IMG/VR virus record: IMGVR_UViG_3300032038_000062 | Coordinates: 1-64,000 of that record | Length of the DNA stretch: 64,000 bases | From: a virus | Direction: 5' to 3' (one strand) | Shown: in pieces, positions 87 to 43,837 of the stretch | Position numbering within the stretch: the first letter of the stretch is position 1 | Layout of the letters: every line of letters starts with the position of its first letter | The notes under the pieces: generated by a model | What the model was told of the DNA's origin: nothing | Databases searched by the model: none | The model's input: only the letters and a program-made list of their open reading frames with translations | Translations under genes and position numbers: made by a program

Positions 87-1910
87 TTAATTATAAAATA
101 TTAATTTACGCTTTCTACCCTTACGTTTATAAGTACGAGAGTATTCGTCCTCTAATTCTTTAATTCTCCAAAGTCCATAGGAAAGTGCAGAGAACTTATC
201 CTTTGGTTTATGAGCATTAATACGTTCAACAGTAACTTCTACCGTATTTGGTTTTAAACGTAAATTAGCCATTTCATCAAAAAGTTTAGTAGTAAGAGTA
301 TGTGGCATTAGACGCTCGATACGTTGATTGGGCGTCATCTTTTGTCCAACTTTCGTTGCTAATAATGCGCTTTTTGCTTCTTGTTCTTTAATTAAAAAAC
401 GTACTTTTCCACTGTTAATTCTTGTATAAGCATTACCATTGATAGCTGAAATTGGAGTCGCCGGAGAGCCATCATTTTTCTTAATACTACTATTACCAGC
501 TTTCATACCAATTAATATATTAATGGCATTACTTGGCTGTATCCTTTGATAGTTTCTATCATTTTTAAATCCATAAGCTGGATATACCTTACCATTTCCA
601 GCATAAGTTTCTTTAATCATCTCGTCTGCCAAGCCCACGCCTAGTCCATTCGTATCTATAACGACTTCGCGAGGATTATAAAGAGCAATAAGCTCTTTTA
701 AATCTGCGGCTTGCGCTGAGAATGTTTTTGTTTCTGGAGTTAATCCTAAAACGATAAGGTTGACTAAAGTAGAATAAAAGTATCCACTACTTTCTTGGAT
801 ATTAACTCTCCATACACAAACGACTGTTTGGTCTGAGAGTCTACCTACGTCCGTCGATAATAAGTAAAATTCGTTGGGGTTATGTCTATTAATTGCACGC
901 TTCTCTGGATTTTTTATTGTCCTATATCTGCTCAATTTATCAAAGTTAAACCAAGATTCGCTGCTGCCGCCGCCCCAAATTGACATATATTCTGATGCGA
1001 ATGACTGCTCACTATAAGATGGTGACATTTTAAGATTATTAATATAAAGTCTATCTAATAAACCGTGCATAACTGGGATTCTATAATCACAGCCAAAAAC
1101 AAAAGAATCTTGCGGGTTCATAATTGAATTTTCAAAAAAGTCTTTTAATTTATCGTAAGCAAAAGTTGCTTTTGAACCTGCGGATGTCATACAAATAACT
1201 TGACGATTTGGTTCTCTTGGGTTTACTGTGCCGTCTGGCTCTCTCCTAGATACATTTAAAAGCGGCAAAACAACTTCATTAATTTCTACCTCATCGTGGT
1301 CACGAATCTCGTCTATTAATCCCCCGTGCCTTCTTCCACCACGAGTACTATCTAAGGCACCTACAACATCAAACTGGCTCCCGTTTCTAAATTTTAATGT
1401 AACGTAGTCTTTTCCGAAATTACCTGGAGTATCACTAATATGACCCCCGATTATTTCTTTCCTAATCAATGGAAAAAGGTCATAAATTTCTAGAATCTTC
1501 TCTCTTGCAATTTGTGCCGCTTGGTTCTTATTAGGCGCGCAGATAAATCTTTTTGTTTTTGGAATAAATATACACTGGAGTATCATTCCCATAATCGAGA
1601 TAAAGCTTTTGCTGAACGCGCGACATGCGGTAATATACACCTCTTTGTATCTCATGACCGCGCGCAGTACAATTCTTTGGTAGAAATATAAATCAAAAGA
1701 ACTATCGGTAGGTTTGATTAAGTCTAAAAATAAATCTGGATACATTATAAAGTAATCAAAATAATCCCTAAGTAGTTGCTCGTTTTCTTCTAAAAAAGCA
1801 GGAGTAAGAATTACCCCTTTCGAGAGCGGCACATTTTCTCTTAATGTAACTTCTACTTTTTCTAAAGCCTCATTAATCTTTGTTTCAATTAAATTTTTCT
1901 TCTCTTTCAA
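87..1910 (-). CDS. terL: Terminase large subunit (ATPase plus RNase-H-like nuclease)
   Basis: 607 aa. N-terminal ATPase region with Walker-B-like LIDEI. C-terminal nuclease-like VVIDTNGLGVGLADE. Overall TerL-like architecture. Confidence 0.75.
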   Translation of the reverse strand: MKEKKNLIETKINEALEKVEVTLRENVPLSKGVILTPAFLEENEQLLRDYFDYFIMYPDLFLDLIKPTDSSFDLYFYQRIVLRAVMRYKEVYITACRAFSKSFISIMGMILQCIFIPKTKRFICAPNKNQAAQIAREKILEIYDLFPLIRKEIIGGHISDTPGNFGKDYVTLKFRNGSQFDVVGALDSTRGGRRHGGLIDEIRDHDEVEINEVVLPLLNVSRREPDGTVNPREPNRQVICMTSAGSKATFAYDKLKDFFENSIMNPQDSFVFGCDYRIPVMHGLLDRLYINNLKMSPSYSEQSFASEYMSIWGGGSSESWFNFDKLSRYRTIKNPEKRAINRHNPNEFYLLSTDVGRLSDQTVVCVWRVNIQESSGYFYSTLVNLIVLGLTPETKTFSAQAADLKELIALYNPREVVIDTNGLGVGLADEMIKETYAGNGKVYPAYGFKNDRNYQRIQPSNAINILIGMKAGNSSIKKNDGSPATPISAINGNAYTRINSGKVRFLIKEQEAKSALLATKVGQKMTPNQRIERLMPHTLTTKLFDEMANLRLKPNTVEVTVERINAHKPKDKFSALSYGLWRIKELEDEYSRTYKRKGRKRKLIFYN

Positions 1911-4913: not shown

Positions 4914-5237
4914 TTATATTATTTCATTTTCCTCGGTTAGATAAATTAAAAACCAGTATAAAATAAATTTTCTATCCTTAATACAGTTGTCAAGAAAAAA
5001 CCATTTGACCTCTGTTTTTGTTTTTCCTCTTGTAAATTCCGCCAAAAGTATTTTGATTTCTTTTCCGGTCTTTTCCTCTAAAAAATCAATGTTGTATTGT
5101 TCCTCTTTCGGGTTAATGATAATATCACCTTTCCAGTATTCCGTAATAAAATCAATTAAATAGATATAGCTTTTTGTCATTGTTAAAACCCCTTTACTTA
5201 AATAAAAATGTTTTGTTTTTCTTGCTAGGGCTTGCAA
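4914..5237 (-). CDS. Hypothetical protein. The real start is probably MTKSY near 5188.
   Basis: ORF plus conserved leader CATTTTTATTTAAGTAAAGGGG before the internal ATG. Terminator hairpin downstream at 4880-4912. Confidence 0.4.
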   Translation of the reverse strand: MQALARKTKHFYLSKGVLTMTKSYIYLIDFITEYWKGDIIINPKEEQYNIDFLEEKTGKEIKILLAEFTRGKTKTEVKWFFLDNCIKDRKFILYWFLIYLTEENEII

Positions 5238-5266
5238 GGCATTTCACCTTGCAAGCCTTATTTTTT

Positions 5267-5899
5267 TTACTTGCTGATACCGTACCATTCAATAAAATCA
5301 TCAAAAGTAATTCCATTAAAAAATAAATCACTTGTAAACTTTTCAAACTTGCTCTTGCTATTAGTAAAAGATTGTATTGACAAAATGTCATAATACCATG
5401 CGCCGCCGCTCTTTTTAACAGTATTCATATAGCCGCTAACTTTCTTGCGAATTAAGCCGTTATTTTTAAGGATATCCATAAAGTCGGATATCTCAAAAAA
5501 TAACACTTGCTTTTTAACGCTCTCTGACGGATAAAACCGCGGTACATACGCGATAAAATCACTTTTCATTAAAGGGCTTGAAGCGATAGAGCCGTCGCTA
5601 TTAAGTGTCGCCAAAGTGCCCGCGCCGCTCTTAATTTCAATTTTAACTTGCTTTCTTTTTTCGCCGTCTTTTTGATACTTTATGCAATCAAATTTGTTAT
5701 TGCCTTGTACCTCTTTAGAGCGGCTATACAAACCTAATTCAAAGTTAACAGCGCGTTCTAAAGCTCTGCCCTCAGCGCCGCTATTAACGCCTTTTTGCGC
5801 TTTTACATGAACATTCACATTTTGCGCGTATTCTAGATACTGTGCAAGCATAGCCGCCGCGATTGCTTTTTTAGTATTGCTGTTGTTGTTGTTTTTCAT
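5267..5899 (-). CDS. Hypothetical protein
   Basis: 210-aa ORF. Shares the 5' leader CATTTTTATTTAAGTAAAGGAG with the 4914 gene. Confidence 0.5.
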   Translation of the reverse strand: MKNNNNSNTKKAIAAAMLAQYLEYAQNVNVHVKAQKGVNSGAEGRALERAVNFELGLYSRSKEVQGNNKFDCIKYQKDGEKRKQVKIEIKSGAGTLATLNSDGSIASSPLMKSDFIAYVPRFYPSESVKKQVLFFEISDFMDILKNNGLIRKKVSGYMNTVKKSGGAWYYDILSIQSFTNSKSKFEKFTSDLFFNGITFDDFIEWYGISK

Positions 5900-6139
5900 T
5901 TTGTTTTTCTCCTTTACTTAAATAAAAATGTTTGGTTTTTGTGCTTTCGCTGCGCTTATTCTATCAGAAAAAAAGACCTTTTACAAGTATTTTCTTGTTT
6001 AGTCAATAATTAAATATTGCACTTTATTAAAACCGCAAGATAGTATTCGTCAATATACACAAAATGAAGTCTAACAAGTCTAAACGGTCTAAAAATGGCT
6101 TATCTATGCGGTTTTAGACCTATTAAGTCTAATACTAAT

Positions 6140-6168
6140 TTGCATTTATCGGGATAATGTGGTATAAT
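6140..6168 (+). promoter_or_regulatory. First early promoter, TTGCAT-N17-TATAAT
   Basis: -35 at 6140-6145, 17-bp spacer, -10 at 6163-6168, extended TG. Sits after the divergent intergenic region. Confidence 0.55.
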
Positions 6169-6191
6169 AATAAGCGAAATGGGGGATTAAA

Positions 6192-6419
6192 ATGAAAATC
6201 TTTGTGAAAAATGACAGTAAGAAAAAGTATTACAATAATGTAATAAACCGCTTAAATAATTACAAAAATGTAATAGAAAAGTTACAAAATGCCCTTAAAA
6301 TATTACAAAAAAGTTACAAGGTTGTAATAAGTATCTCCCTCTGGGCGCTCGACCGGTGTCTGCCGGACAGGTGCGGGCGTATGCCCTCAGTGGCGTCCCG
6401 TGTCAGTATATACGTCTAA
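6192..6419 (+). CDS. Hypothetical small protein. The 3' half runs through a GC-rich hairpin island.
   Basis: 75-aa ORF with RBS GGGGGA. Coding status of the GC-rich second half is uncertain. Confidence 0.4.
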   Translation: MKIFVKNDSKKKYYNNVINRLNNYKNVIEKLQNALKILQKSYKVVISISLWALDRCLPDRCGRMPSVASRVSIYV

Positions 6420-6638
6420 AGGAGCTGCGTTTGGGGACCTGGGAGCTGCGTTTGGCAGCGCGGGCAGCTGCGTTTCAAAAGAAGCTACGCTTTAAAGGGA
6501 GCTACGTCTAAGCGGAGCGTTGCCGCTGTAGGAGCTACAATTTTAGACTATTAAAGTCTAAGAGGAAAAAATAAACTATTGACTTTTTTATAAAAGAGTG
6601 ATATAATAATTATAGAATAAAGAAAGGGGATAAACCTA

Positions 6639-6905
6639 ATGGCAAGATACAAACTTACTTTTACAGACACAGAAACTGGTACAACTTATTTGCTTGATGA
6701 TAATATGCCCAGCTATGACAGCGCGGTTTTTGCCGCTTTGGATTATGTCGCGGACGGCGCAGTCAAAGCGGGCGAAAGTGGCGACACTGCCGCAGAAGTA
6801 AGGCTTTTTAACGCTGGACTTTCCATGGCTATAGAGTTCGCCGGAATGGCTGGGCTTGACTGCGCGAGTTGCTGCGGCTTTACCATCACAAGGAAAGGAG
6901 AATAA
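6639..6905 (+). CDS. Hypothetical early protein
   Basis: 88 aa, RBS AAAGGGGA, preceded by palindrome plus promoter. Confidence 0.55.
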   Translation: MARYKLTFTDTETGTTYLLDDNMPSYDSAVFAALDYVADGAVKAGESGDTAAEVRLFNAGLSMAIEFAGMAGLDCASCCGFTITRKGE

Positions 6906-7037
6906 AAGAGATTGCGCCAAGCGCAATCTTTCTGCCCTTAGGCTTCTAAAGTCTAAATTATTCTACTTTTAATCTTGACAATATTATTATAGTATGATAT
7001 AATATAGATAAAGTAAAAGAAAGGAAAAAGAGTAATT

Positions 7038-7298
7038 ATGGTTTATGTAATGACGTATCATACGCCTGTGGGCAACTTTTTGAGTGCTTGGAGTTCAAGG
7101 GACGCCGCTATTGAAGCTGTTTACACAATGATTGTAAATGGATATAAAGAAGCAAAGGCAGAAGGAAATGACAAAGCGGCAAACGAATTTTATGATATGG
7201 GATTGAAAGCTAATAAAGCATTTGCCGCTGGCAAGAATGACTTTGAGAGATGGCAGATTATTCCCTTGGAGATGGATACATTAGTTCAAGACGACTAA
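7038..7298 (+). CDS. Hypothetical early protein
   Basis: 86 aa, RBS AAAGGAAAAAGAG, own promoter. Confidence 0.55.
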   Translation: MVYVMTYHTPVGNFLSAWSSRDAAIEAVYTMIVNGYKEAKAEGNDKAANEFYDMGLKANKAFAAGKNDFERWQIIPLEMDTLVQDD

Positions 7299-7326
7299 GG
7301 TTATAGGTGACCATAACCTTTTTTCT

Positions 7327-7381
7327 TTAGACTTCTAAAGTCTAAGCAGAGATTGACAAAAGAAAAGAGATATGATATAAT
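7327..7381 (+). promoter_or_regulatory. Palindrome TTAGACTTCTAAAGTCTAA (7327-7345) plus early promoter TTGACA-N17-TATAAT (7353-7381)
   Basis: Representative of about 21 such units. Read directly. Confidence 0.7.
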
Positions 7382-7407
7382 ATGGATAGAATAAAGGAGG
7401 AGATATT

Positions 7408-7764
7408 ATGAAAGAAAAGAAAAAGAAAGAGAAAGATAACTTCCGTTTCTTTTTCATGACTATAAGTATACTTACTGCTGTAGTTGTTATTCTTGTGGGA
7501 TTTGTCGTAGTGATTTTGGAGTATAACACATCAATAGCGAGAATAAAAGTAAACATCTATCCGCTTTTAACCACAGTCACAGGAGTAGACAGAGATAAAG
7601 ACCTCGTAACCGTAGAAGATAATAACGGCTTTATCTGGCAGTTCGAAGGCGCAGATGATTGGGAAGAAGGCGACTTATGTAATTGCCTTATGGATAGCCA
7701 AGGAACAGAAAAAATTTTTGATGATGAAATTATAATGACAAAATATGAAAGCGGCGCGAGGTAG
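7408..7764 (+). CDS. Hypothetical membrane protein (one TM)
   Basis: 118 aa, RBS AAAGGAGGAG, hydrophobic segment ILTAVVVILVGFVVVIL. Confidence 0.55.
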   Translation: MKEKKKKEKDNFRFFFMTISILTAVVVILVGFVVVILEYNTSIARIKVNIYPLLTTVTGVDRDKDLVTVEDNNGFIWQFEGADDWEEGDLCNCLMDSQGTEKIFDDEIIMTKYESGAR

Positions 7765-7904
7765 CGCCCTTTCTTTCTTATTTTAGTTTAGACTTCTAAA
7801 GTCTAAGATTTTCTTGGAATTTTTTGGAAAAAATTTTTTGGAATTTTTCTTAAAATATATTAATTTCCTAAAATTAAGGGTTGACATTTTCCCATAATTA
7901 TGGT

Positions 7905-8100
7905 ATAATATAGACAATGAAAGAGAGAGAGAAGGGAATGATTCCAATGTGGTTGTAATTCACTAAACAATTCAATCAATAAACCATTCGATTGATAAAC
8001 CAGATGTACCAGACAGAAAGGGTTAAAGCAATGGCAAGAGATTCTCCCAATTAAGATAATATTGATATTTTGCTACGGAGGGGAATAATCCCCTTCTTTT
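7905..8100 (+). ncRNA. Candidate small non-coding RNA (promoter-to-terminator unit with no ORF)
   Basis: Early promoter GGGTTGACA...TGGTATAATATAGAC at 7868-7905. About 180 nt with only a 13-codon ORF. Strong terminator GGAGGGGAATAATCCCCTTCTTTTTT at 8073-8100. Confidence 0.45.
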
Positions 8101-8263
8101 TTATGTATTTTTAGACTTCTAAAGTCTAAGGACAAAAAATTATTTTGAAAAAGTAGTTGACTTTTTTATAACTCTATGATATAATATAGATACAGTCAAG
8201 GGAGATAGAAACCGACTGAATATAAAATTTGGGTGGCGACCGTCGCTAAAGGAGTTTTTATAA

Positions 8264-8616
8264 TGGCAGAAAAGAAGTACACACAGAGAGATTTTCTCAC
8301 AGATGTAATTAATGGAGTATTTAACGAAACCGTGACCGGCTACGCTCAGGAGCGCCTCAATAAGCTCGACGAGAAGAACGAGAAGCGCAAGGCAGAAACT
8401 TCTGCTAATCAGCTTAAAAACGCCCAGCTTTTGGAGGACTTCGTAACATTCATCACCGAGCAGGAGGAGCCGCAGACCACAACCGAAATTGCTAACCACT
8501 TCGGCTTGTCAACTCAGAAGGTTGCCCCGATTATGGCTAACGGCGTAAAGACCGAGCGCGTGACCGAAACCACGAAAACGGTCAACAAGAAGAAGTACAA
8601 GGCATACACCGCCTAA
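8264..8616 (+). CDS. Winged-helix DNA-binding protein, paralog A
   Basis: 117 aa from ATG 8264 with RBS AAAGGAG. C-terminal TTTEIANHFGLSTQKVAPIMANGVKTERV resembles a wHTH recognition helix plus wing. Paralog of 11769..12116. Confidence 0.6.
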
Positions 8617-8802
8617 GAAAGGAAAGGGTTACAAGTTTGTAACCCTTTTTCTCTTTTCCCTCCTTAGACTTCATATGTCTAACATATTTTTTATATTTTT
8701 AATAAAATATTAGTAATTAATTTGTATAATTTTTTGACTTTTATAGAAAAAACAATTATAATAATAGTAGAAAGAATGGAAAGAAAGGGAGGTTATAGCT
8801 CA

Positions 8803-8973
8803 ATGATTTGCAAAGTCAAGGAAAGTTTTGAACTATCAGAAATAGAGAAAAAAGTTTATGCTGATTTCCAAGAAATTCTAATTCAAATGAAAGAGGTTGC
8901 AACTGTTTCTGATACAAGACATTTAATTGAAACTATTTATTGTGACTTAGTAACTTTAATACCTCAGGTTTAG
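8803..8973 (+). CDS. Hypothetical small early protein
   Basis: 56 aa from ATG 8803 with RBS AAAGGGAGG. The upstream part of the 8722 ORF overlaps the promoter. Confidence 0.45.
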   Translation: MICKVKESFELSEIEKKVYADFQEILIQMKEVATVSDTRHLIETIYCDLVTLIPQV

Positions 8974-9075
8974 ACTTTAGAAGTCTAAGAAAATAGTATT
9001 TTTTCAAAAAAATAATTGACAAATAAAATTTTTTATGATATAATAATTATAGAAAATTGAAAGGAGGCTATTTTA

Positions 9076-9468
9076 ATGGCTACATCAAAAACTGCTTTGC
9101 GTGAAAAAGTGAGAAATTTTTATCTTGATAAAATCACAAAATTTCTTGACGGCGAGGGCGAAGAAATTTTGATGATTAAAACAAATCAATTTTGTTTTCC
9201 TGTGGTTGATGATGAAGGGAATGAATTGTTTATAAAAGTTGTTGTTTCTGTACCGAACGGCTCGAAGGACAAGAACGGTGCTACAATTCCCTTTGACGGC
9301 TACGGAGAGGCAATTGGTTATGAAACTGAGAAAAAGCAAAAAGAGGAAAAGAAAGCAGAGAAGGCAAAGAAAAAAGCCGAAAAAATGGAGCGTGACAGAT
9401 TGGAACGCCAGAGAAAGAAAGAACAGCAGGCAAACAAAGAAAAATACAGAGAGGGAAAAGGGGCATAA
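9076..9468 (+). CDS. Lys-rich early protein, paralog A (C-terminal K/E/R tail ending KGKGA)
   Basis: 130 aa. Paralog of 14235..14597, sharing the start of the N-terminal domain and the tail. Confidence 0.6.
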   Translation: MATSKTALREKVRNFYLDKITKFLDGEGEEILMIKTNQFCFPVVDDEGNELFIKVVVSVPNGSKDKNGATIPFDGYGEAIGYETEKKQKEEKKAEKAKKKAEKMERDRLERQRKKEQQANKEKYREGKGA

Positions 9469-9578
9469 AAACCCCTTTTTTCTCTAAAGGAATTTTAGAC
9501 TTCTAAAGTCTAAACAAGGGTTGACTTTTCTTTTATTGTATGATATAATATAACTACAGTAAGAAAAGGAGTGATTAA

Positions 9579-9779
9579 ATGTATATTGTAAAAAGACCGC
9601 AAGTTGTTTTAACAACTAAAGACCTTCAGGCAATCCGCACAACTATGCTGATATTAGATGAAGTTCTCGACAAGGACGATAACCTTGTGCTTGATATTGA
9701 TACTTCTTCAATAGCAAGGGCTTATGAAACTTTATGCGAGTTTGTTAAAGATTGCGAGATAGATGAGGAGGAAGAATAA
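9579..9779 (+). CDS. Hypothetical acidic early protein
   Basis: 66 aa, RBS AAAAGGAG. Confidence 0.5.
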   Translation: MYIVKRPQVVLTTKDLQAIRTTMLILDEVLDKDDNLVLDIDTSSIARAYETLCEFVKDCEIDEEEE

Positions 9780-9960
9780 AATGATGATTATTTGCGCAAT
9801 TTTTATTGCTGTCGGCATTATCGCTACGGTTGTCACCGCTATTAAGATTGATTTAAGTCACGACCCCACGCCGCCGCTGATTTTGTTTTTCTTTATAAGC
9901 GCAATCGTTACATTAAGCGCTATTGTCAGTTTTATCGTTGGTCATTTTACAGGAGTATGA
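9780..9960 (+). CDS. Small membrane protein (two TM)
   Basis: Start MMII with RBS GAGGAGG in the stop region of the upstream gene (translational coupling). Confidence 0.5.
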
Positions 9961-10101
9961 AGGTAAAACTTCATACTTTTTTTTACTATCTGTTTAGACT
10001 TCTAAAGTCTAAACTTTAATAGCAAGAGAAAAAAATTTTTTGAAAATGTATTGACTTTTTTATAATACTATGATATAATATAAATACAGTAAAGAAAGGA
10101 T

Positions 10102-10560
10102 TTGATAAACTTGAAAAGAAAAATTTGGTTCGATATGGATGGAACAATCGCTAACCTGTACGGCGTGGAAAATTGGCTTGACGATTTGAGGGCAGAAGTC
10201 CCACGACCGTACAAAATCGCAAAAGCAAATGTTAATTTGTCCCTTCTGGCTCGTTATCTCAACAAGTTGAGGGCGGGCGGCTATAAAATCGGCGTTATTA
10301 GTTGGACTTCCATGAAGTCAAGCCGAGAATATGAAGAAGAAGTCGCCGCCGCAAAAATTCATTGGCTTATCAATCACCTCCCTTCTGTTTGGTTTGATGA
10401 AGTTAATATTGTACCCTACGGCACAGAAAAAAATCTTTTCAATAAAGGGCGCGACCTGCTTTTTGATGATGATATCAGAGTAAGGGAAAAATGGACAGGC
10501 GAAAGTTATCCTCCCGAACAGATTTTCGACGTACTGCACAACTTGATTTCGGCGCTTTAA
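10102..10560 (+). CDS. HAD-superfamily 5'(3')-deoxyribonucleotidase-like hydrolase
   Basis: DMDGT motif I (IWFDMDGTIANLY). Size and layout resemble NT5C-type nucleotidases. The start may be TTG at 10111. Confidence 0.55.
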   Translation: MINLKRKIWFDMDGTIANLYGVENWLDDLRAEVPRPYKIAKANVNLSLLARYLNKLRAGGYKIGVISWTSMKSSREYEEEVAAAKIHWLINHLPSVWFDEVNIVPYGTEKNLFNKGRDLLFDDDIRVREKWTGESYPPEQIFDVLHNLISAL

Positions 10561-10672
10561 TGCGCTGAAATCTTTTTAGAAAATTTAGACTTCAAAAGTC
10601 TAAGAAAGAATAGAAAGGGGTTGACTTTTCTATAATTGTATGGTATAATATAGATAAGAAAGGAGGAGAAAT

Positions 10673-10912
10673 ATGAATATTCAATTAATCAGTAATGTAA
10701 AAATTAATTTAGAACCTTCAGAACTTAATGCTATAAATACTACAAAAAAAGTTTTAGAAAGAATTGAAGAAATTATTGATAGCGTCAAGAATGCCAATTT
10801 TTGGGAGTTTTTAAGCGAATATTATGATAATGATATTATAGAACTGCTTGACGATTTCCAACAAGATGATAGGTTAGAACGCCGCATTAAAGAATATCTC
10901 TGGGAGATATGA
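10673..10912 (+). CDS. Hypothetical early protein
   Basis: 79 aa, RBS AAAGGAGGAG. Confidence 0.5.
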   Translation: MNIQLISNVKINLEPSELNAINTTKKVLERIEEIIDSVKNANFWEFLSEYYDNDIIELLDDFQQDDRLERRIKEYLWEI

Positions 10913-11037
10913 CGACGAGGAAGAAGATTTTTAATCTTCTTCTTTTTTCTTTAGACTTCAAAAGTCTAAACTATAATTGACAAAAAATTTTATTTATGAT
11001 ATAATATAAATACAAAAAAGGAAAGCTGGGAGAAAAA

Positions 11038-11166
11038 TGAAAGAAAAACTTAACGAAATCGAAAAAGAAATTAAAGAAAAAATGGAAGAAAGCATATATA
11101 ATGACGATATTTATATTACTGTAACTATCGTTTTCGAAGTATTACACTCTATATTAGACGATTAGG
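11038..11166 (+). CDS. Small early protein (42 aa)
   Basis: Own promoter TTGACA..TGATATAAT at 10978-11013, RBS AAAGGAAAG, ORF below the 60-aa track cutoff. Confidence 0.4.
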
Positions 11167-11270
11167 CGGTCGCCGCTTTGTGATTTAGACTTCTAAAGTC
11201 TAAATTTTTATTGACCTATTAAATATATTATGATATAATATAAATGTAATAAAGAAAGGAGATTGTTTTA

Positions 11271-11582
11271 ATGTGTAAAAAAACTAAATATAAAAATTAT
11301 CGAATTGGAAAGTATCTTTTCACTGTAGAAATAAAAAAAGGCTGTGACTGTTTTGGAGATTATTTTTACATCACCATAAGAGATAGACACGACGCGCCGC
11401 GGAACTTTTTTGAGAGAATTAAACTAAAATTTAAGAACGAATATGCTATTGGAGATTCTTGCTGGCGCCCACTTTTTGACAAAAAAAATTTTGAGCGCTT
11501 TATCCTTGATAAGTTAGATTTTATTGTAGACAATAAATTTAACTTAGAAGAAGCAAACATTTTATGGGAAAATCTCGAATGA
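11271..11582 (+). CDS. Hypothetical early protein
   Basis: 103 aa, RBS AAAGGAGA. Confidence 0.5.
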   Translation: MCKKTKYKNYRIGKYLFTVEIKKGCDCFGDYFYITIRDRHDAPRNFFERIKLKFKNEYAIGDSCWRPLFDKKNFERFILDKLDFIVDNKFNLEEANILWENLE

Positions 11583-11768
11583 GATTTTCTTTTTGATTTT
11601 CTTTTAGACTTACAAAGTCTAAACCCCTAAATTTTTTTTGAAAAAAGTATTGACTTTTTTATTAAAATAGTTTATAATATACTTGTAAGGTTGAGAAAGG
11701 AAAGAAACCTTAATGAAACCTACAAAATAAAAATTTGGGTTGCGACCTACGCAAGAAAGAGGTTTATT

Positions 11769-12116
11769 ATGGCAGACAAGTACACTCAGAGAAATTTTTT
11801 GACAGACGTTATCAACGGCAATATTACCGAACAGGTGACCGCCTACGCCGAGGAAAGACTTGCGAAACTTGACGAGAAGAACGAAAAGCGCAAGGCTGAA
11901 ACCTCCGCCAATCAGCTCAAAAATATCCAGCTCGGCGAGGATATTGTCGCCTTCGTTACCGAGAACGGCGCGCAGACTACTTCCGAGATTGCAAGACAGT
12001 TCGGTGTTTCTACTCAGAAGATTGCGCCTATCACCAACGCACTTGTGAAGGAAGGCAAGCTGACCGAAACCACAAAGACGGTAGACAAGAAAAAGTATAA
12101 GGCGTTTACAGTTTAA
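11769..12116 (+). CDS. Winged-helix DNA-binding protein, paralog B
   Basis: 115 aa from ATG 11769. About 60% identical to 8264..8616, with a conserved leader and stem-loop upstream. Confidence 0.6.
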   Translation: MADKYTQRNFLTDVINGNITEQVTAYAEERLAKLDEKNEKRKAETSANQLKNIQLGEDIVAFVTENGAQTTSEIARQFGVSTQKIAPITNALVKEGKLTETTKTVDKKKYKAFTV

Positions 12117-12237
12117 CCGCCGAGGGGTACGCAAGTACCCCGACTTTTTTTAGATTTTCTTAGACGTTGTAAGTCTAAGATTAAATTGACTTTATTTTAT
12201 TTTATGGTATAATATAAATAATGAAGGAGGTAATATA

Positions 12238-12636
12238 ATGAAAATTCAGTATATTGCAAATGACGGAAAAATTTTTGATAATGAGTTTGACTGTCGGGAA
12301 TATGAGTCAAAAAAACAAGTAGATGAATTTCTCAATAAAAGAGAGCTAATCTTCTTGTCACGCTCAGGAGAAGTTCTTTTCGGAGAGATTGACGATTGCG
12401 CCGAGAGAGCTACTTATATTTTTGTTAATAGCGAGGCGGCACTTCAAGCTCTTTGGGGAGAAAATGAATGTCAGCGAGAAATCCGCCCACCCGAAGAAGG
12501 ATATTGGTATTATGATTATGAGTATGAAACCTGGAGAAGCATGAAAACTCAGGTTGAAATATTAGAAAATGAATTAGCTGAACTCAATAAAATTTATGAC
12601 CGCTTTGATTATCTTATAAGAAAACCTCAAGACTGA
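12238..12636 (+). CDS. Hypothetical early protein
   Basis: 132 aa, RBS GAAGGAGG. Confidence 0.5.
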   Translation: MKIQYIANDGKIFDNEFDCREYESKKQVDEFLNKRELIFLSRSGEVLFGEIDDCAERATYIFVNSEAALQALWGENECQREIRPPEEGYWYYDYEYETWRSMKTQVEILENELAELNKIYDRFDYLIRKPQD

Positions 12637-12747
12637 GGTTTTCTTTTTATTTTATTCTTAGACTTCTAAAGTCTAAAGTTAAATTGACTTTTTTAATCTT
12701 CTGTGATATAATATAGTTACAGTAAAGGAAAGAGAAAGGAAAATAAA

Positions 12748-12990
12748 ATGAAAGTAAAAACTAATAAATTTTGGGAAATTATCAACTATCTGTGTTTGAT
12801 TGGTCTTGTTATCGGTCAAATTACCGTAGGCTATGCTTACATCTTTGCGCAAATTATCTATCTGATTTGTAATACCGCCTCCGTTATTCGTGATATTAAA
12901 TTGCGGTTGCCGCCCTCTAATATTGTTAGGGACGCTTGCTTTACTGCAATTACTATTGGCTTAATTATTATCCGAGCGTTTTTCGGCTAA
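12748..12990 (+). CDS. Small membrane protein (two TM)
   Basis: 80 aa, RBS AAAGGAAAA. Confidence 0.5.
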   Translation: MKVKTNKFWEIINYLCLIGLVIGQITVGYAYIFAQIIYLICNTASVIRDIKLRLPPSNIVRDACFTAITIGLIIIRAFFG

Positions 12991-13215
12991 AATATCCTCC
13001 TTTACTTTATAGGTAGGCGTGGGCAATAGTCCACGCTATCCTATTAAAATTAGTTTAGACTTCCAAAGTCTAAGCCCACTCGTTGGGCGGTTAGCATAGG
13101 CTAACTTTTATTTTCTTTGAAAAAACTATTGACAAAACCGAAAAAATATGATATTATATATATGTCAGTTAGAGAGCGAAGGCAAACCTAAATTGACAGA
13201 AAGGAAAGTGATAAT

Positions 13216-14110
13216 TTTGAATTTTGAAAACAAAATTGACCGAAGAAAAAAATATTATTTGGTTTTTGATTGTGAAACCGCGACTTTGCCCTTCGCGGCA
13301 ACCATTGAAGAACCAAAAGACAAACAAAAAATTGCTATTGCTAAACCATTAATTTATGACTTGGGATGGCAGGTAATTGACCGCAAAGGGAATGTATATT
13401 GCCGCCGCTCGTATTTAGTCAGCGAAATTTTTTCCGTTCCTGCGGTTTTTAATACCGCGTATTATGCAAGCAAGCGCCCGATTTATCTTGATAAATTGGC
13501 AAAAGGTGAAATTATCCTGACCGATTGGAAAACAGCCACTGCAAAACTAGAAGAAGATTTACAAAAGGTTGAAGCGGTCGGCGCTTATAACTCAATGTTT
13601 GACTATAAAAAAGCAATTCCATTTACAGAAAAATATATCAAGATGTTATATTCTCCATACTATTATAAATGGGAAGAAAAGCAAATTGAGCATTGCAAGC
13701 ACATTTTATCAACGCCATATTATAAAAGTGATAATGAATTTAACCCTGAGATTTTCGAATTTAGGGATAAACAATATGCACTTTTTGACCTTTGGGGGCT
13801 GAGTTGCCGCCACCTCTTAAACAATAATGAATACAAACAAACTTGCATTAATAACGAATGGAAAACGGCAAGCGGGAAATTTTTCAAAACAAGCGCAGAA
13901 ACCGCATTCAGGTTTTTAACAAAAAACAATGATTTTATAGAAAGTCACACGGCTATTGAAGATACTATAATTGAGAGCCAAATTTTGACCGAAATTATAA
14001 AGCGCACAAAAAACAAATTTGAATTGGGGATTATTTATTTTCCCTTCCGTGAACTCGGAACAGTTAAAGATTTTGAAAACACACACGACAATATTTTTGA
14101 TTTATTCTAA
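13216..14110 (+). CDS. DEDDh-family 3'-5' exonuclease (DnaQ-like), paralog A
   Basis: Exo I LVFDCETATLP, Exo II YNSMFDYKKA, Exo III HTAIEDTIIES. Start TTG or GTG near 13207-13216 after RBS AAAGGA. Conserved leader shared with paralog B. Confidence 0.7.
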
Positions 14111-14234
14111 AAGAAAAAGGTTACAGAAATGTAACCTTTTTCCTCCAAAACTACCTTAGACTTTGTAAGTCTAAACCCTATTTGACTTCTCTATAATTAT
14201 ATAGTATAATATAGATAATAAAGGAGGTAATAAT

Positions 14235-14597
14235 ATGGCAAGTCGTTCTCAATTAAGAGCTAAAATCCGTCAAAAATATCTAACCCAAATTCGTGATTTT
14301 CTCAAATCACAAGGCGAAGAAGTTTTACTGACAAAAAGTAACCAACTGGCGATTCCAACCTGTGATGACGAAAACAACGAAGAAACACTTACAATTACTT
14401 TTGCTGTCCCTCTCGGCTCTAAAGCAGATAATGAACCTTTTGACCCATACACCGCTGCGGAAGTTTACGCACAAAATACAGAAAATAAAAGGGTTGAGGC
14501 TGAAAAGAGAGCAAAAGCAAAAGCAGAAAAAATTAAAAGAGATAAGGAGTACAGAGAAAAACAAAAAGCAAACAAAAAGAAAGGAAAAGGCGCATAA
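14235..14597 (+). CDS. Lys-rich early protein, paralog B
   Basis: 120 aa; same architecture and KGKGA end as 9076..9468. Confidence 0.6.
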   Translation: MASRSQLRAKIRQKYLTQIRDFLKSQGEEVLLTKSNQLAIPTCDDENNEETLTITFAVPLGSKADNEPFDPYTAAEVYAQNTENKRVEAEKRAKAKAEKIKRDKEYREKQKANKKKGKGA

Positions 14598-14788
14598 GCC
14601 TTTTCTTTTTAGAAGAATTTAGACTTTAGAAGTCTAAATCTTATGCTGCGGCGGTTAGCATAGACTAACTAAAAAATTTTTTATAAATTTATAAAAAAGT
14701 ATTGACAAATTAAAAAATCTATGCTATAATTGTATTGTCAGTTAGGGAAAGACGTTAAATCTAAATTGACAGAAAGAGGTTGATAATT

Positions 14789-15670
14789 TTGAATTTTGAA
14801 AAAAAACTTGACCGCCGCCGCAAATACTACCTTGTATTTGATTGTGAAACGGCAACTTTACCCTACGCGGCAAATTTTGAGGGTAAGGCAAGACAGGCAA
14901 TTTCTATTGCTAAACCATTAATTTATGATTTGGGTTGGCAAGTGATTGACCGTCAAGGCAATATTTACCGCCGCCGTTCGTACCTTGTTAGCGAAATTTT
15001 CAGCGTCCCTGCGGTTTTCAATACTGCATATTACGCAAGTAAACGTCCGATTTATCTCGAAAAATTAAATAATAACGAAATTATCCTGACCGACTGGAAA
15101 ACAGCCACCGCAATATTAGAAAAAGATTTGCAAGAGGTTTGCGCCGTTGGTGCTTATAATTCAATATTTGACTTTAAAAAAGCGATACCATTTACAGAAA
15201 GATATATAAAAGCGTTGTACTCACCGCACTATTATAAATGGGAACGGCGGCAAAACGAAATCTGCGACCGAATCGCAAGCGGAGAAATTCAAGAGAATAA
15301 TCAGACTTTTGACCCAGAAAATTTTTTCTTTAGAGAAAAAAATTATCCGTTGTTTGACCTTTGGGGCTTAAGTTGTAAACACTTATTAAATAATGATGAT
15401 TATAAAAAATCTTGTATTATGAATAAGTGGGAAACGGCAAGTAAAAAATATTTCAAAACTTCGGCGGAAACTTCATTTAGATATTTAACAAAAAATGATG
15501 ACTTTGAAGAAGCGCACACAGCTATTGAAGATACAATAATTGAGAGCTTAATTTTTGCCGAAATTGCAAAACGTACTAAAAATAAATTTGAAATGGGAAT
15601 TATTTATTTTCCGTTTAGAATTTTAGGCACTGTCAAACAATTCAAGGAACTAAACGATATTTTCGATTAA
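14789..15670 (+). CDS. DEDDh-family 3'-5' exonuclease, paralog B
   Basis: About 70% identical to paralog A; motifs LVFDCETATLP / YNSIFDFKKA / HTAIEDTIIES. Start TTG at 14780 or 14789. Confidence 0.7.
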   Translation: MNFEKKLDRRRKYYLVFDCETATLPYAANFEGKARQAISIAKPLIYDLGWQVIDRQGNIYRRRSYLVSEIFSVPAVFNTAYYASKRPIYLEKLNNNEIILTDWKTATAILEKDLQEVCAVGAYNSIFDFKKAIPFTERYIKALYSPHYYKWERRQNEICDRIASGEIQENNQTFDPENFFFREKNYPLFDLWGLSCKHLLNNDDYKKSCIMNKWETASKKYFKTSAETSFRYLTKNDDFEEAHTAIEDTIIESLIFAEIAKRTKNKFEMGIIYFPFRILGTVKQFKELNDIFD

Positions 15671-15798
15671 AGAAAGAAAAGGTTACAGAAATGTAACCTT
15701 TTCCCCCCCAAAATTATTTTAGACTTTGTAAGTCTAAATCCTATTTGACTTCTCTATAATTATATAGTATAATATAGATAATAAAGGAGGCGAAGATA

Positions 15799-16074
15799 AT
15801 GGTAGGCTATAAAATTATGAAAAATTTTGATAATTATAGATACACTTATACAGAAACAGTAGCAATTTGCTTATCTTTTGAAAGGGCAATACAATATCTT
15901 ATTGAAGAATGCGGCTTAGATGAAAATTATATCTATTCTGATTTTTATGGAAAAACCACATTAAAAGACGCATTCGGTAAAAACTGGTTATCAGAATTAA
16001 TTAATAATAAAATAACTTATTTTTCTTTTGAAGATTGTGATTATGAGATTGAAGAATGTAATATTTTAGAATAG
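15799..16074 (+). CDS. Hypothetical early protein
   Basis: 91 aa, RBS AAAGGAGG. Confidence 0.5.
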   Translation: MVGYKIMKNFDNYRYTYTETVAICLSFERAIQYLIEECGLDENYIYSDFYGKTTLKDAFGKNWLSELINNKITYFSFEDCDYEIEECNILE

Positions 16075-16360
16075 GGCACTCAGTGCCCCTTTTTATTTTA
16101 GACTTACGAAGTCTAAACTTTTCTAACCTTAGACTTACAACGTCTAAACTCATCAAATTTTCTCTCCCTCGTCAAACTTCTCACTATCTCGCGCCCAGTC
16201 ACTTCGTGTGTGTGTCCCCTAGTCTCCCTTTTCTAGCTTTTCTCCTGAAATGAGCTACGTTTTAAAATTTGAAATTATAAGGAAAAAGCGCTATAATATA
16301 TATAGAAAGTTAAGAAAGAATTAAAAGACTTTCAATCTATAAAAAAGAAAGGGAAACTAA

Positions 16361-16708
16361 ATGGAAAAGAAGATTACAGAAAAAGAGGTTATTAAAAGAC
16401 TTTCTCTCGGAGAATGTGACGAGGAAATGATTGAGTGGGCAACAGGTAAATATGAGAAGCTGTTAGCCGCCGAAGAGAAGAAAGCCGAGAAACAGAAGGA
16501 AAAAGCTCTTGAGAATAAGCCGATTATCGAAGCAATCGAAAGTGTACTCACAGATGAATACCAACCCGCATCAGTATTTGCTAATGCTGCGGACGTTAGC
16601 GTTCAGAAGATTGTCCACGTTCTAAAGGCTATGGATTCGGTAGAAGTCGGAGAAATTAAGATTACCGGAAAAGGAAAGTCAAACGGATATAGAAGAAGAG
16701 AGGTTTAA
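16361..16708 (+). CDS. Hypothetical early protein (last gene of the cassette)
   Basis: 115 aa, RBS AAAGGGAAA, promoter TTGAAA-N17-TATAAT at 16268-16296, terminator at 16700-16730. Confidence 0.5.
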   Translation: MEKKITEKEVIKRLSLGECDEEMIEWATGKYEKLLAAEEKKAEKQKEKALENKPIIEAIESVLTDEYQPASVFANAADVSVQKIVHVLKAMDSVEVGEIKITGKGKSNGYRRREV

Positions 16709-16709
16709 C

Positions 16710-17650
16710 CTCTCTTTTTTTTATACCCTTATTATTATATTATTATAATATTATAATATAATATAATATATAATAAAAAAATATTATAATAAAAATTTGA
16801 AAAAAAGCTAGAGCTGGGGCAGCACCAAATTATACCAAATCATACGATTTCATACCAAATCACACTATTTTATATAACTTTATACCTTCTCATATCCTTT
16901 TATATTCCCTTATACCCCTTTATATCCCCTTATACCAAACTATACAATTCCCTATAACCTTATACCAAACCATACACTATTCTCTACTACTAAACCCCTT
17001 TAATTCCTACTAAACCCCTTTATCTATTTCTAAACTAATTCCCCTTTGAACTTCCTCTTCTGAGTACTCGTCAGTTAGGAAAGACTCGAATCCTATACCC
17101 TTCCACTAATCTACCTAGATACGCCTATTGTAAGCAAACACAACGTTTTTCTTTTCGCTTAGAGCACAATCCTATTATTATAATATTATAATAAAACGTA
17201 TAAGCCCACCCATACGTTTTTCTTATACGCTTTTCTACGAATCCTATTATTATAATATTATAATATTATAAGCCCACTTATACGCCCAATTATCAGCTTT
17301 TTTATACGCTCCTATTGGAATCCTATTATAATAATATTATAAGAAAGATTATAAGCCCACTTATACGCTCTTCTACGAATCCTATTATTATAATATTATA
17401 ATATTATAATAAGATTATAATAGGATTATAATAAAACGTTGTTGTCTCGCCTAGCGCTAAAGCGCAAGGCTCAACCTATGGCTACGCCGTTGTCGCCTTA
17501 TGCTCTTCGAGCAACGGCAAAAACGTCTTCGCACAACGGGGAAGGAAGAAAACAAAGGGAACACAATTCTATTATTATATTATTATATTATAATATTATT
17601 ATAATATTTCTTAATTTGATAATAAGTATTTTTTTCTAATAATTCCTACA
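16710..17650. repeat. AT-rich repeat region at the convergence of early and leftward transcription
   Basis: Multiple palindromic ATTATAATATTATAAT elements. Four direct repeats of about 65 bp (AATCCTATTATTATAATATTATAATA...TAAGCCCACYYATACG) at about 17160-17440. Short TTATACC / CTTTATA repeats at 16830-17040. GC-rich island at 17440-17560. Confidence 0.7.
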
Positions 17651-17926
17651 AAATTTTAATCCCAGAATTCTTGGAAAATTTTTGGAAAATTTTCTATCCC
17701 ATAAAAGAGATTTCTGGAAAATTTCCCATTATTAGGTCGCGCCCGTCCGCATAAAATCGTTCAAATCCTAAAAAAAAGAAAGAGAGGACTAGCCTCTCTT
17801 TTATTCATATCTTATATATTCTTTTGAAGGAATAGTTATATCATACTCTGTTTGGCGAAAGCTTGTGCCTTGTAATATCTTCACAAACGTCAGCATGAAC
17901 ACATTCTTTACAAGTTGCCATAACAA

Positions 17927-18409
17927 TTACCTCCCGTTAATAATTTCGTATGTGTAACTGTCTATGTAGTTGCCGCATTCGTCTTTTGTAGTTTCGTGCC
18001 AATGGTGAATATATCCGTTATGACGCTTGCAGAACTTATCATAATGGCGTTTTACGGGGTTGCTACCTACCACATGCCACTCAATTCGATGGTGCGTTTT
18101 TACGAGTTCCTCCAGCTTTTGGAAAACATCTCTTCCAAGGAGAGGGTTTCCTTTGTCAAAGGAGAATAGCCCAAAATTCTGCACGGTATCACTATAATCA
18201 CTGATTCTGTATGTGAGGAATCCGATAAGGTTGTCGCCGCTATCAACGATTGCGAATTGGTACAGGTCGTCTTTCTCCTCAATTTTCGGCAAGCTGCTTC
18301 CACAACAATATCCGCAATAGTAGAAATAATCTGTAGTGTACAAGTGCTCGGTGAATTTTCTTGTAATTTCTTGTGCATATAAGAGTGCTGGCTTAAGCAT
18401 TGCTTTCAC
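17927..18409 (-). CDS. Hypothetical protein, possibly an acyltransferase-like fold
   Basis: 160-aa ORF with weak resemblance only. Confidence 0.4.
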   Translation of the reverse strand: MKAMLKPALLYAQEITRKFTEHLYTTDYFYYCGYCCGSSLPKIEEKDDLYQFAIVDSGDNLIGFLTYRISDYSDTVQNFGLFSFDKGNPLLGRDVFQKLEELVKTHHRIEWHVVGSNPVKRHYDKFCKRHNGYIHHWHETTKDECGNYIDSYTYEIINGR

Positions 18410-26751: not shown

Positions 26752-28035
26752 TTACGGAAAGATTCCTGCATCTCTTCTGTATCCTCGCTTATATTCGTGG
26801 GGAAAGACAACTTCACCAATTCCATAGATATGATTCCTCCAAGAACTTACTATTAAAGCCACACTATATAATACTAAAGCAACGCAAAATACAACTTCAT
26901 AATTAAGTCCATTTTGTAATATAATTGCAGTAGTATTATTACCAGTTAATCCAGCAATAGCCCAAGCACTAAGCGCCAGTCCGTGGATTTCACTTACTTT
27001 TGAAAGTCCAAAATACTCTGTTAATAAGGCTGGTAATGTACTAAAACCGCCACCATAGCCAGCATTAACAACCAAAAGTAAAAGAACAATTATAAATGGT
27101 AGTATAGCTGAACTTCTAAATATAAGTGTAGAAATCAGCATAAAGATACAGCTAATAAAGATAATTTGATAAATTGTTTTTCTCGTTTTACAATGGTCAG
27201 ACAAGGTTGAGTAACCGATTCTGCCGCCAGCGTTAAATAAAGCAGTAATCATTGGAATTATAGCAGTCGCCGCAGCTAATCCAGTTAGATAAATATTGAT
27301 AATTTGTGTTTCATAGCTTATCAACATTAAACCACAATGGATATTAATAAAGAAGATAAGCCAAATTCTTCTAAAGTACCTATTCTTAAACATACTCAAA
27401 GAAAACTTTGGTATTTCTTTACTTTCAACCCAATCAATCGGTTTCTCTAATAAGAAATGACCGGTCATCATTATAATAAAATAAAAACCGCCTAAAATCA
27501 AGAACATTATCCAAATTCCAAACTGTGCGAGCAGCCAAGTCATAATGGGTGTGGCTATGGCTTTAGCTAAACCAAAACCAGCAATAGAAATGCCTGTTGC
27601 TAAACCCTTATTATCTTTAAACCATAGCATTAATGTTTTAACTGGTGAAAGATAACCTATTCCTAGTCCTATTCCCATTAATACACCATAGGATAAGTAA
27701 ATTCCTATAAGTGCTGGAATACCTTTTAATAATAGAATTGATAAACCAGTTCCTATCATACCACCGCTAAAGCATATTGCGGCGACAAGAGAAGATTTAT
27801 GAACATCTCTCTCAACATATCGTCCTCCAAAAGCCGCGGACATTCCCAAAAAGAAAATTGCTATTGAGAAAGCCCAGCCAACTGCAAATGGAGAAAGATT
27901 AACGTATTGCGCTATTTGGTCTTTAAAAGTAGACCAACAATATACTGTTCCTATTGAGCAGTGGATTAATAATGCTGGTATCGCGCCATTTAATATTTTA
28001 TTCCGTGTCATTATTCCTCCTTTATTCATATTCAT
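26752..28035 (-). CDS. MFS-type transporter (12 TM, OFA-like)
   Basis: 427-aa polytopic protein with MFS-like hydropathy periodicity. Confidence 0.65.
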   Translation of the reverse strand: MNMNKGGIMTRNKILNGAIPALLIHCSIGTVYCWSTFKDQIAQYVNLSPFAVGWAFSIAIFFLGMSAAFGGRYVERDVHKSSLVAAICFSGGMIGTGLSILLLKGIPALIGIYLSYGVLMGIGLGIGYLSPVKTLMLWFKDNKGLATGISIAGFGLAKAIATPIMTWLLAQFGIWIMFLILGGFYFIIMMTGHFLLEKPIDWVESKEIPKFSLSMFKNRYFRRIWLIFFINIHCGLMLISYETQIINIYLTGLAAATAIIPMITALFNAGGRIGYSTLSDHCKTRKTIYQIIFISCIFMLISTLIFRSSAILPFIIVLLLLVVNAGYGGGFSTLPALLTEYFGLSKVSEIHGLALSAWAIAGLTGNNTTAIILQNGLNYEVVFCVALVLYSVALIVSSWRNHIYGIGEVVFPHEYKRGYRRDAGIFP

Positions 28036-43486: not shown

Positions 43487-43764
43487 ATATGGTGACCGAG
43501 TGTGCAGTTAGTCGACTGGTGTAACCTCCCAGCGCTTCAATCACACGCATCCCCATTGGATTTCACAAACTTTTATACTAGGACTTCCGCGGCGAACTAC
43601 CTCGTTGAGTTGTTACTCAATGTGTTCCAATTAATTAGGGCTATATTTTCTTCTCGGCTTTTAATACTTGCCTATCGGTCAAATAGTAGTAATTGGTTTA
43701 GCCTATCGTTTATAGTGCCGTTGAGACCGATTGGACTACTACTAATCTCCTCTTGCACTTATTG

Positions 43765-43837
43765 CGACTCCAACGGGACTTGAACCCATGACCTCTAGCG
43801 TGACAGCTAGCGTTCTACTCTTCTGAACTATGAAGCC
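43765..43837 (-). tRNA. tRNA, probably Asp (GTC); CCA not encoded
   Basis: T-loop TTCAAGT; anticodon region CTAGC-TGTCAC-GCTAG has a 6-nt loop as read. Confidence 0.45.

Follow-up and report, generated by a model that had tools for sequence, protein, structure and literature searches.

A family-wide conserved, strand-specific array of AGCTRCR boxes in the early cassette of a large Firmicutes phage

What is the role of a short, GC-rich and repeat-bearing block of DNA at the head of the early genes of a large phage? Large virulent phages gather their host-takeover genes in promoter-dense cassettes, and the non-coding repeat blocks in such a region of phage T5 have been unexplained for decades. 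The question arose here from a stretch of 64 kb (hereafter the window, i.e. the whole stretch of DNA that was analysed). A first-pass annotation had noted a GC-rich hairpin island with direct repeats at the left edge of an early-gene cassette and a related motif at the right edge, and had proposed boundary or recombination sites for an inverted cassette, iterons, or a structured RNA.

The early cassette and its first transcription unit

The source of the window is a large Firmicutes phage. The TerL gene (87-1910, minus strand) has its closest cultured match in Geobacillus virus E3 (41% identity), followed by SPbeta YonF-type terminases; the region upstream of TerL in Geobacillus virus E3 contains no such early cassette, and Enterocloster phages have only ~75 bp of promoter sequence in common with the window. 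A 443-aa protein, whose gene lies upstream of the terminase operon, has its match in a sigma-factor family of phages (PHROG 5767, E = 4e-14); for a neighbouring protein of 210 aa, no relatives were detected by a word search of IMG/VR. The window contains 24 tRNA genes; in the tRNA block, ARAGORN predicts a tRNA with a four-base anticodon (gtca; 43764-43837), amino acid unassigned. A 427-aa ORF (26752-28035) matches transporters of the Major Facilitator Superfamily (Pfam MFS_1, E = 8.9e-24), an unusual cargo for a phage. The GC content of the whole window is ~35%, and the roughly 30% first given for the genome is too low.

The early genes form a plus-strand cassette of small genes (~6100-16700), each with its own consensus sigma-70 promoter; ~21 promoters scoring 11-12/12 are spread over 10 kb. 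Just upstream of the -35 of each early promoter lies one 19-bp palindrome, TTAGAC-N7-GTCTAA, for which 21 matches were found in the window against 0.05 expected, all of them inside 6114-16147. This palindrome looks like the operator for a cassette-wide regulator, and relatives have other palindromes at the same place. One cassette protein matches a 5'-deoxyribonucleotidase (dmp-like). The first two cassette genes (6639-6905 and 7038-7298) encode small proteins that are alike in size and composition and appear paralogous by eye; the GC content of the first cassette gene is 52-57%, against 35% for the genome. A non-coding block of 0.9 kb (16716-17620) separates the cassette from convergent genes on the minus strand. 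It contains TATTATAA arrays, several 20-nt tandem repeats and four units of ~70 nt with AAGCCCAC.TATACGC, and it looks no less like an origin or terminus than the AGCTRCR region described below.

The element under study occupies the first transcription unit of the cassette, in the order operator (6114-6132), promoter (6139-6168), called ORF (6192-6419), array (6420-6539), next operator (from 6543) and next promoter (from 6579). The features are:

6114-6132, no strand: operator-like 19-bp palindrome TTAGAC-N7-GTCTAA, the first of 21, at the start of the early cassette
6139-6168, plus strand: sigma-70-type promoter TTTGCA-18-TATAAT with extended TG, which drives the first cassette unit
6192-6342, plus strand: conserved 50-codon part of a small ORF (MKIFV.ND...KSYKVVISISLW)
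6230-6243, 6260-6273 and 6314-6327, no strand: three 14-bp palindromes TTACA-N4-TGTAA in the AT-rich part of the unit
6313-6342, no strand: nearly invariant core AGTTACAAGGTTGTAATAAGTATCTCCCTCT
6343-6419, plus strand: GC-rich island with candidate plus-strand hairpins at 6345-6374, 6375-6386 and 6389-6407
6420-6539, plus strand: AGCTRCR box array (six boxes and a degenerate GAGCGTT at 6516)
6543-6607, plus strand: second operator palindrome (6543-6561) and next early promoter (6579-6607), the right-hand limit of the element
16252-16263, plus strand: isolated copy of GAGCTACGTTTT before the last promoter of the cassette, at chance level and without an array

The GC-rich island that had been noted is borne out: the GC content (100-nt windows) is 52-63% over 6300-6549 and 23-30% on either side, with an AT-rich stretch (6200-6299, 23% GC) directly upstream. 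Both hairpins named for the island are present (CCGGTGTCTGCCGG at 6352-6365, GGGCGTATGCCC at 6375-6386). The direct repeats are less regular than first described. The first motif, given as three copies, occurs exactly twice (GGAGCTGCGTTTGG, 6421-6434 and 6442-6455), and the third copy (GCAGCTGCGTTTCA, 6464-6477) is only 79% identical; AGCTGCGTTT is exact three times. The second motif, given as three copies of GAGCTACG, is exact only once (6499-6506), the others being AAGCTACG (6482-6489) and GAGCTACA (6532-6539); a degenerate box, GAGCGTT, lies at 6516-6522.

All of these repeats reduce to one 7-nt box, AGCTRCR, with starts at 6423, 6444, 6466, 6483, 6500 and 6533, and hence with spacings of 21, 22, 17, 17 and 33 nt. 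By chance, ~3 boxes per strand are expected in 64 kb; six were observed within 117 nt, which places the array far beyond chance. Outside the array, the window contains four boxes on the plus strand and seven on the minus strand (~3 expected per strand), neither enriched nor strand-biased, and these sit in coding or tRNA sequence, the copy at 16252 being the sole other intergenic one. The latter is the related motif that had been placed at the right edge of the cassette: it does lie upstream of the last promoter, but at 16252-16263, 5 nt away from where it had been given, and as a single, chance-level copy (GAGCTRCG: 1.2 chance matches expected in the window, one copy found outside the array). 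It is probably not part of the element. The palindrome TTACA-N4-TGTAA, by comparison, is found six times in the window against 0.16 expected, three times within 6230-6327; of the remaining copies, one lies in a predicted terminator hairpin and two lie just past gene ends.

The called ORF of the unit extends to 6419 (75 aa), but its tail past 6342 is not conserved as protein. In each of 10 strains compared, the first 151 nt contain no stop in the ORF frame and one to nine stops in the other two frames, and the length of 151 nt is constant across these strains, which form two diverged groups that are 56-62% identical there; the first 50 codons are thus probably a real small ORF. In the tail, net frameshifts follow SISLW in six of 16 strains, though the DNA stays similar, and the GC island is therefore non-coding. 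No variation, synonymous or otherwise, occurs in the last 12 codons of the small ORF, a hint that a DNA or RNA signal overlaps them.

Conservation in close strains and in family relatives

For the analysis of constraint, 16 close strains of identical synteny were assembled from contigs that encode relatives of the 75-aa ORF and from a scan of metagenomes with a 21-nt core. Across these strains, minority cells amount to 2.1% in the boxes, 7.4% in the spacers, 10.8% in the island and 0.3% in the palindrome core (19 core columns); in the neighbouring gene they amount to 5.3, 6.1 and 16.2% at codon positions 1, 2 and 3. All four parts of the element lie below the third codon positions of the neighbour, hence the whole ~220 bp element is constrained, the boxes and the core most so. 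The promoter at 6139-6168 is 86-98% conserved across nine close strains, and the second operator and next promoter (6543-6607) show 94-100% identity among close strains. The number of boxes varies within this conserved frame: strains carry zero, one or two extra 17-nt units, with differences also between near-identical strains, and the 6483 box of the window is such an extra unit, present in only five of the 16 strains.

More distant relatives were collected as 39 related IMG/VR loci fetched by TerL (TerL 50-72% identical; largest contigs ~100-115 kb), and by pattern scans of IMG/VR with GGAGCTGCGTTTGG, with two copies of GGAGCTGC and with three copies of AGCTGCR. The matches of the pattern scans were mostly Ala/Gly-rich coding repeats, and were filtered for spacing not divisible by 3, for absence of an open frame and for low GC content. 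Thirteen further arrays of 3-9 boxes each were obtained in related phages, representing ~eight sequence types; six loci with arrays came from the TerL-based set (L242, L243, L248, L252, L259 and L265), and six were added by the pattern scans (L004, L295, L311, L344, L365 and L394).

Every array lies on the strand opposite to TerL, i.e. on the strand of the early genes, and at most one array was found per stretch examined. Between array types, flanks and spacers are unrelated, and the box alone is in common. The logo of 79 copies reads [G/T]-G-AGCTGC-R-W-W, with GAGCTGC in 57 of the 79 boxes, and reverse-oriented GCAGCTC was not seen in the arrays when these were read by eye. In 12 arrays, the boxes are spaced 6 to 52 nt apart without any favoured phase, and L344 and L248 have copies that directly adjoin (7 nt). 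Palindromes that differ between lineages (TGTCAAATTT-type, TTAGACG..CGTCTAA, or GGAAAAATTTTCC) are interspersed among the boxes, and GC-rich hairpins, including GCCCGGG..CCCGGGC and CCCGCTCCCAGCTGGGAGCGGG, precede them.

Three placements relative to the cassette were observed. The arrays of the window, L243 and L344 are at the left edge, adjoining the sigma/terminase operon; those of L004, L311/L259 and L365 are amid plus-strand early genes; and those of L242/L265/L394, L248 and L295 are at the right end, beside convergent genes. The right-end arrays of L394, L295 and L248 are preceded by strong terminators; a promoter scan of the interval between terminator and array gave no sense-strand promoter in L394 and L295, and only a weak 9/12 match in L248. 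In L365, a promoter-like site is aimed antisense into the array.

The array is thus a real, family-wide conserved, strand-specific and non-coding cis element, which is selected above its spacers and varies in copy number.

Several further observations were made in these relatives. L004 (minus strand) and L365 (2300-2530) have several Firmicutes LexA (Cheo) boxes, perfect or nearly so (CGAACATACGTTCG, CGAACAAATGTTCG), just upstream of the array. A small transcription unit directed away from the array is found in L311 (1340-1460), L365 (2300-2420) and L295 (4540-4660); it has, in this order, a strong promoter, the GCCCGGG..CCCGGGC hairpin and the bidirectional terminator belonging to the upstream gene, and it may encode a small RNA. 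TerL is interrupted in close relatives: L516 (2632-5664) and L517 (2627-5659) encode a product of 1010 aa that has a faint LAGLIDADG match and looks intein-like, and the TerL gene of L344 (5181-7127) is split by an endonuclease-like ORF of 280 aa. A scan of genome contigs yielded, among the matches listed (at least 120), only unrelated ones, and no prophage or host emerged; the matches listed comprise coding repeats, a 22-bp tandem repeat of a Gemmiger contig that is likewise unrelated, and 7-bp tandem repeats of Bacteroidota. The Bacteroidota contigs (L398, L402, L409, L416, L480 and L492) carry non-coding AGCTGCR tandem repeats with a strict 7-bp period and are unrelated to the phage family.

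Candidate functions of the array

The function that we tentatively prefer for the array, as judged from sequence comparison, is that of a multi-site recognition array for a conserved factor, located in a non-coding hub of the early cassette and of the origin or packaging type. The AGCTRCR(W) boxes would be DNA recognition sites, in many copies, for one conserved sequence-specific factor, putatively a conserved phage protein or a host protein common to all hosts of the family. Each asymmetric box of 7-8 nt would be read singly, given that there is no helical phasing and that copies may abut, and extra copies would lead to higher occupancy. The hub would then be a platform of short-box iterons on which a nucleoprotein complex assembles to carry out a process at the genome level. 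Initiation of replication seems the likeliest such process, possibly triggered by early transcription crossing the hub, with initiation of packaging as the second choice.

Action at the DNA level, protein binding and a role in replication or packaging are what we infer. A DNA platform is suggested by the recurrence of the same box in ~eight sequence types that otherwise share no flanks or spacers, and by the composition of the hub, which always pairs boxes with lineage-specific palindromes and GC-rich hairpins, in the window also with a stretch of 23-29% GC. The constraint on the whole ~220 bp points to a nucleoprotein site, and the right-end arrays with no or only a weak sense promoter argue that a purely RNA-level role cannot hold in every lineage. 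The array lies in the path of an early promoter in the window, L243 and L311, which would fit a transcription-activated origin, a kind known from lambda, T7, T4 and lactococcal c2. The gain and loss of whole 17-nt units between near-identical strains is consistent with an iteron-like element.

Several findings weigh against this preferred function. The spacing is irregular (6-52 nt) and not phased to ~2 helical turns, which argues against an iteron origin; the iterons proposed at the outset are retained as multi-copy direct repeats, but the boxes of 7-8 nt are short and are not classical phased iterons of 17-22 bp. Neither a replication initiator nor any further replication gene turned up in the vicinity of the hub or in those ORFs of the 64-kb window that were scanned. 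No cluster of DnaA boxes was found in the window, where eight boxes against 8.1 expected, one of them in the hub, represent chance frequency only, and DnaA boxes were dismissed as an identity for the repeats. The block at 16716-17620, being at least as origin-like, speaks against the hub as the origin. Further, a double-strand binding site does not require the strict co-orientation with the early genes that is seen across all three placements; this co-orientation would follow more naturally from an RNA-level signal or from a signal for a translocating enzyme.

The second of these, an orientation-dependent signal for a DNA-tracking enzyme near a genome end, is a possible but doubtful explanation. 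The array would be either Chi-like, against a nuclease of the AddAB/RecBCD type, or a terminase/packaging signal (pac, terminal-repeat boundary); a box would be recognised with some probability per passage, so that spacing would be irrelevant and more copies would help. The boxes are indeed on one strand only, unphased, in part abutting and variable in number, and the orientation of the array versus TerL is constant. The cassette moreover resembles the host-takeover module of SPO1 and the pre-early region of T5, both of which lie in terminal repeats, two contigs (L243, L252) end inside arrays, and phage LLS offers a precedent for terminal, orientation-biased Chi clusters (PMC12315714). However, such an enzyme needs a nearby DNA end, and the clustering of contig ends reflects strain microdiversity. 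About 18 contigs run straight through the window-type hub, and the 127-kb contig L295 has no second copy of the array. The spacers and the island are constrained as well (7-11% versus 16%), which a pure Chi array would not need; elsewhere in the window the motif shows no enrichment or strand bias, and the array is on different sides of the cassette depending on the lineage, so that the same genes would not always be protected.

Genome termini had also been considered from contig ends that cluster 3-5 kb upstream of TerL, and were rejected, since strain microdiversity explains these ends. L245 and L259, for example, are 99.9% identical and then ~90% identical exactly from the start of the early cassette (index ~14680 on the reverse complement), where the contig stops. 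Several contigs break at the cassette start, and strain diversity is concentrated in the cassette. The 127-kb L295 contig was searched for an uncollapsed terminal repeat, and none was found.

A further idea within the same class, which we regard as distinctly unlikely, is that the array is a compact Chi-like cassette that would disarm the AddAB-type nuclease of gut/rumen Firmicutes hosts on the first DNA to enter the cell. If true, it would reveal the Chi word of the hosts as GAGCTGCR or its complement YGCAGCTC. The literature yielded nothing usable on a Clostridia Chi word or on the SRL/SRR arrays of T7.

The other signal compatible with co-orientation, an RNA-level element, is rather unlikely. 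The early transcript would consist of the small ORF and a long untranslated tail, in which the hairpins and the AGCUGCR boxes would work at the level of the transcript; they might, for instance, serve a nuclease or an RNA-binding protein as sponge or docking platform, or stabilise early mRNA or direct its processing. Like all cassette genes, the unit is equipped with an operator and an early promoter of its own; the equivalent promoter-driven unit of L243 has no credible ORF; and the array is always on the early-gene sense strand. The structured RNA proposed earlier gains some ground from compensatory changes. In a model of three hairpins in the island (6345-6374, 6375-6386 and 6389-6407), 94.6% of the cells are paired, three pairs are changed on both sides, and there are many switches between G-C, G.U and A-U. 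As 29% of the cells are G.U, only plus-strand RNA could adopt this fold, and the consensus fold of the plus strand is at -56.5 kcal/mol versus -35.5 kcal/mol for the minus strand. Other results weigh against the same proposal: Rfam gave no match in 5000-18000 except for an unrelated one at E = 0.62, the z-scores of single-sequence folding (-1.05 and -1.33) are not significant, and the RNAalifold consensus is unstable, shifting between 10 and 16 sequences. Only 1-2 of 500 shuffles equalled the three-hairpin model, a result that counts as no more than suggestive under the caveats of the tool; related sequences devoid of structure are known to beat this control as well. RNA hairpins in the island are therefore only suggested. 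An RNA-level role suits the window, L243 and L311, whose arrays are read through from an early promoter, but it is difficult to reconcile with the right-end arrays, which follow strong terminators and have an undetected or weak sense promoter, and with the antisense promoter-like site that points into the array of L365. A sponge for CsrA (GGA) or for Shine-Dalgarno sequences was rejected, as the G at -2 is not conserved across lineages and TGAGCTGC is common.

A platform for the control of transcription appears more improbable still. The boxes would bind a regulator, perhaps together with the conserved 443-aa sigma-like protein, and would time the switch from early to later genes where the cassette meets the leftward sigma/terminase operon. 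The hub does sit in a divergent region between the cassette and the sigma-like/TerL operon in the window, L243 and L344, and its boxes are interleaved with operator-like palindromes. In most lineages, however, the array is 10 kb away from that operon, possibly without a downstream promoter; the other box copies of the window are in coding or tRNA sequence and not at promoters, for which reason a promoter element of the phage sigma-like factor was also discarded; and arrays of 4-9 sites with a drifting copy number would be unusual for operators. A CRISPR-like array was rejected too, the units being too short and spacers lacking.

Recombination sites that bound an invertible cassette, or meaningless slippage repeats, are contradicted by the data and are the least probable of all: one box does lie near the other cassette edge and the copy number shifts in slippage-like 17-nt units, but the copy at 16252 is at chance level and in direct orientation, no inverted repeats link the two cassette edges except for the operator palindromes and AT-rich low-complexity sequence, at most one array is present per stretch examined, and within the array the boxes vary least and recur in lineages without common flanks. 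A comparison of relatives for cassette inversion, as the first-pass annotation had suggested, gave the same orientation to TerL in 16 of 16 related loci, with the array variously at the left or right end of the cassette or within it, and no recombinase was matched among the neighbour proteins tested.

Comparison with known systems

One word of 7-8 nt is the sole thing conserved across this uncultured family of ~100-115 kb phages from gut-type metagenomes, and it represents a precise handle for experiments. If a host enzyme reads the word, it would report on host biology; if it belongs to an ordinary origin or pac element, it would still mark the family and the control hub of its early region for annotation.

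Some known systems match the hub in single features. Short-box origin repeats and iterons are known as DnaA boxes, as the type I iterons of satellite phage P4 and from the lambda ori. These share with the hub the clustered copies of a short asymmetric box in non-coding DNA, the AT-rich neighbour and the variable copy number; the hub differs in having no adjacent initiator gene, in its boxes on one strand, and in an irregular spacing down to 7 nt. The hexamer clusters of P1 pac and the heptamer arrays SRL/SRR of T7 are unevenly spaced words of 6-7 nt near the packaging cleavage or terminal-repeat boundary. Their words are different from AGCTRCR.

In the lambdoid phage LLS, 20 of 23 Chi sites are in the active orientation and terminally clustered (PMC12315714); as in the array, one asymmetric octamer is repeated many times in the same orientation. 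The sites of LLS are spread along the genome, denser near its right end, and match the known Chi of the host, whereas the boxes here are packed in 100-170 bp and not enriched elsewhere.

Each host-takeover gene of SPO1 has its own strong host-type promoter. The SPO1 host-takeover module, in the terminal redundancy, resembles the cassette of the window in its ~20-24 small genes (PMC10531801). SPO1 belongs to another phage family, and the terminal location is known for its module, not for the window cassette. We know of no array of the AGCTRCR type in SPO1.

The hub has its nearest analogues in the terminal repeat of T5, namely in its untranslated repeat regions. Repeat regions 1-3 of T5, located in the left terminal repeat (injection-stop-signal region), are, like the hub, non-coding direct repeats, palindromes and inverted repeats among pre-early/host-takeover genes, and Repeat Region 3, with nine DRD repeats, straddles the inner end of the terminal repeat (Davison preprint, 10.1101/866236). 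In both cases many of the ORFs nearby are less conserved than the regions themselves, whose function is unproven, and the T5 region likewise goes with a dmp gene, as the 5'-deoxyribonucleotidase match does with the window cassette. The two differ in that there is no sequence similarity and in that the hub has no DnaA-box set: the T5-type arrangement of ~eight paired DnaA boxes within large inverted repeats (IRD'-spacer-IRC') was not encountered in the window. The TerL of the window is of the SPbeta YonF / Geobacillus E3 type and not T5-like, and terminal repeats are known for T5 only. Given a likeness to T5 without common sequence or DnaA boxes, and other systems that match single features only, the hub is outside the named families, and it is therefore filed as a conserved repeat hub in a phage early region, with the T5 repeat regions as its closest counterparts.
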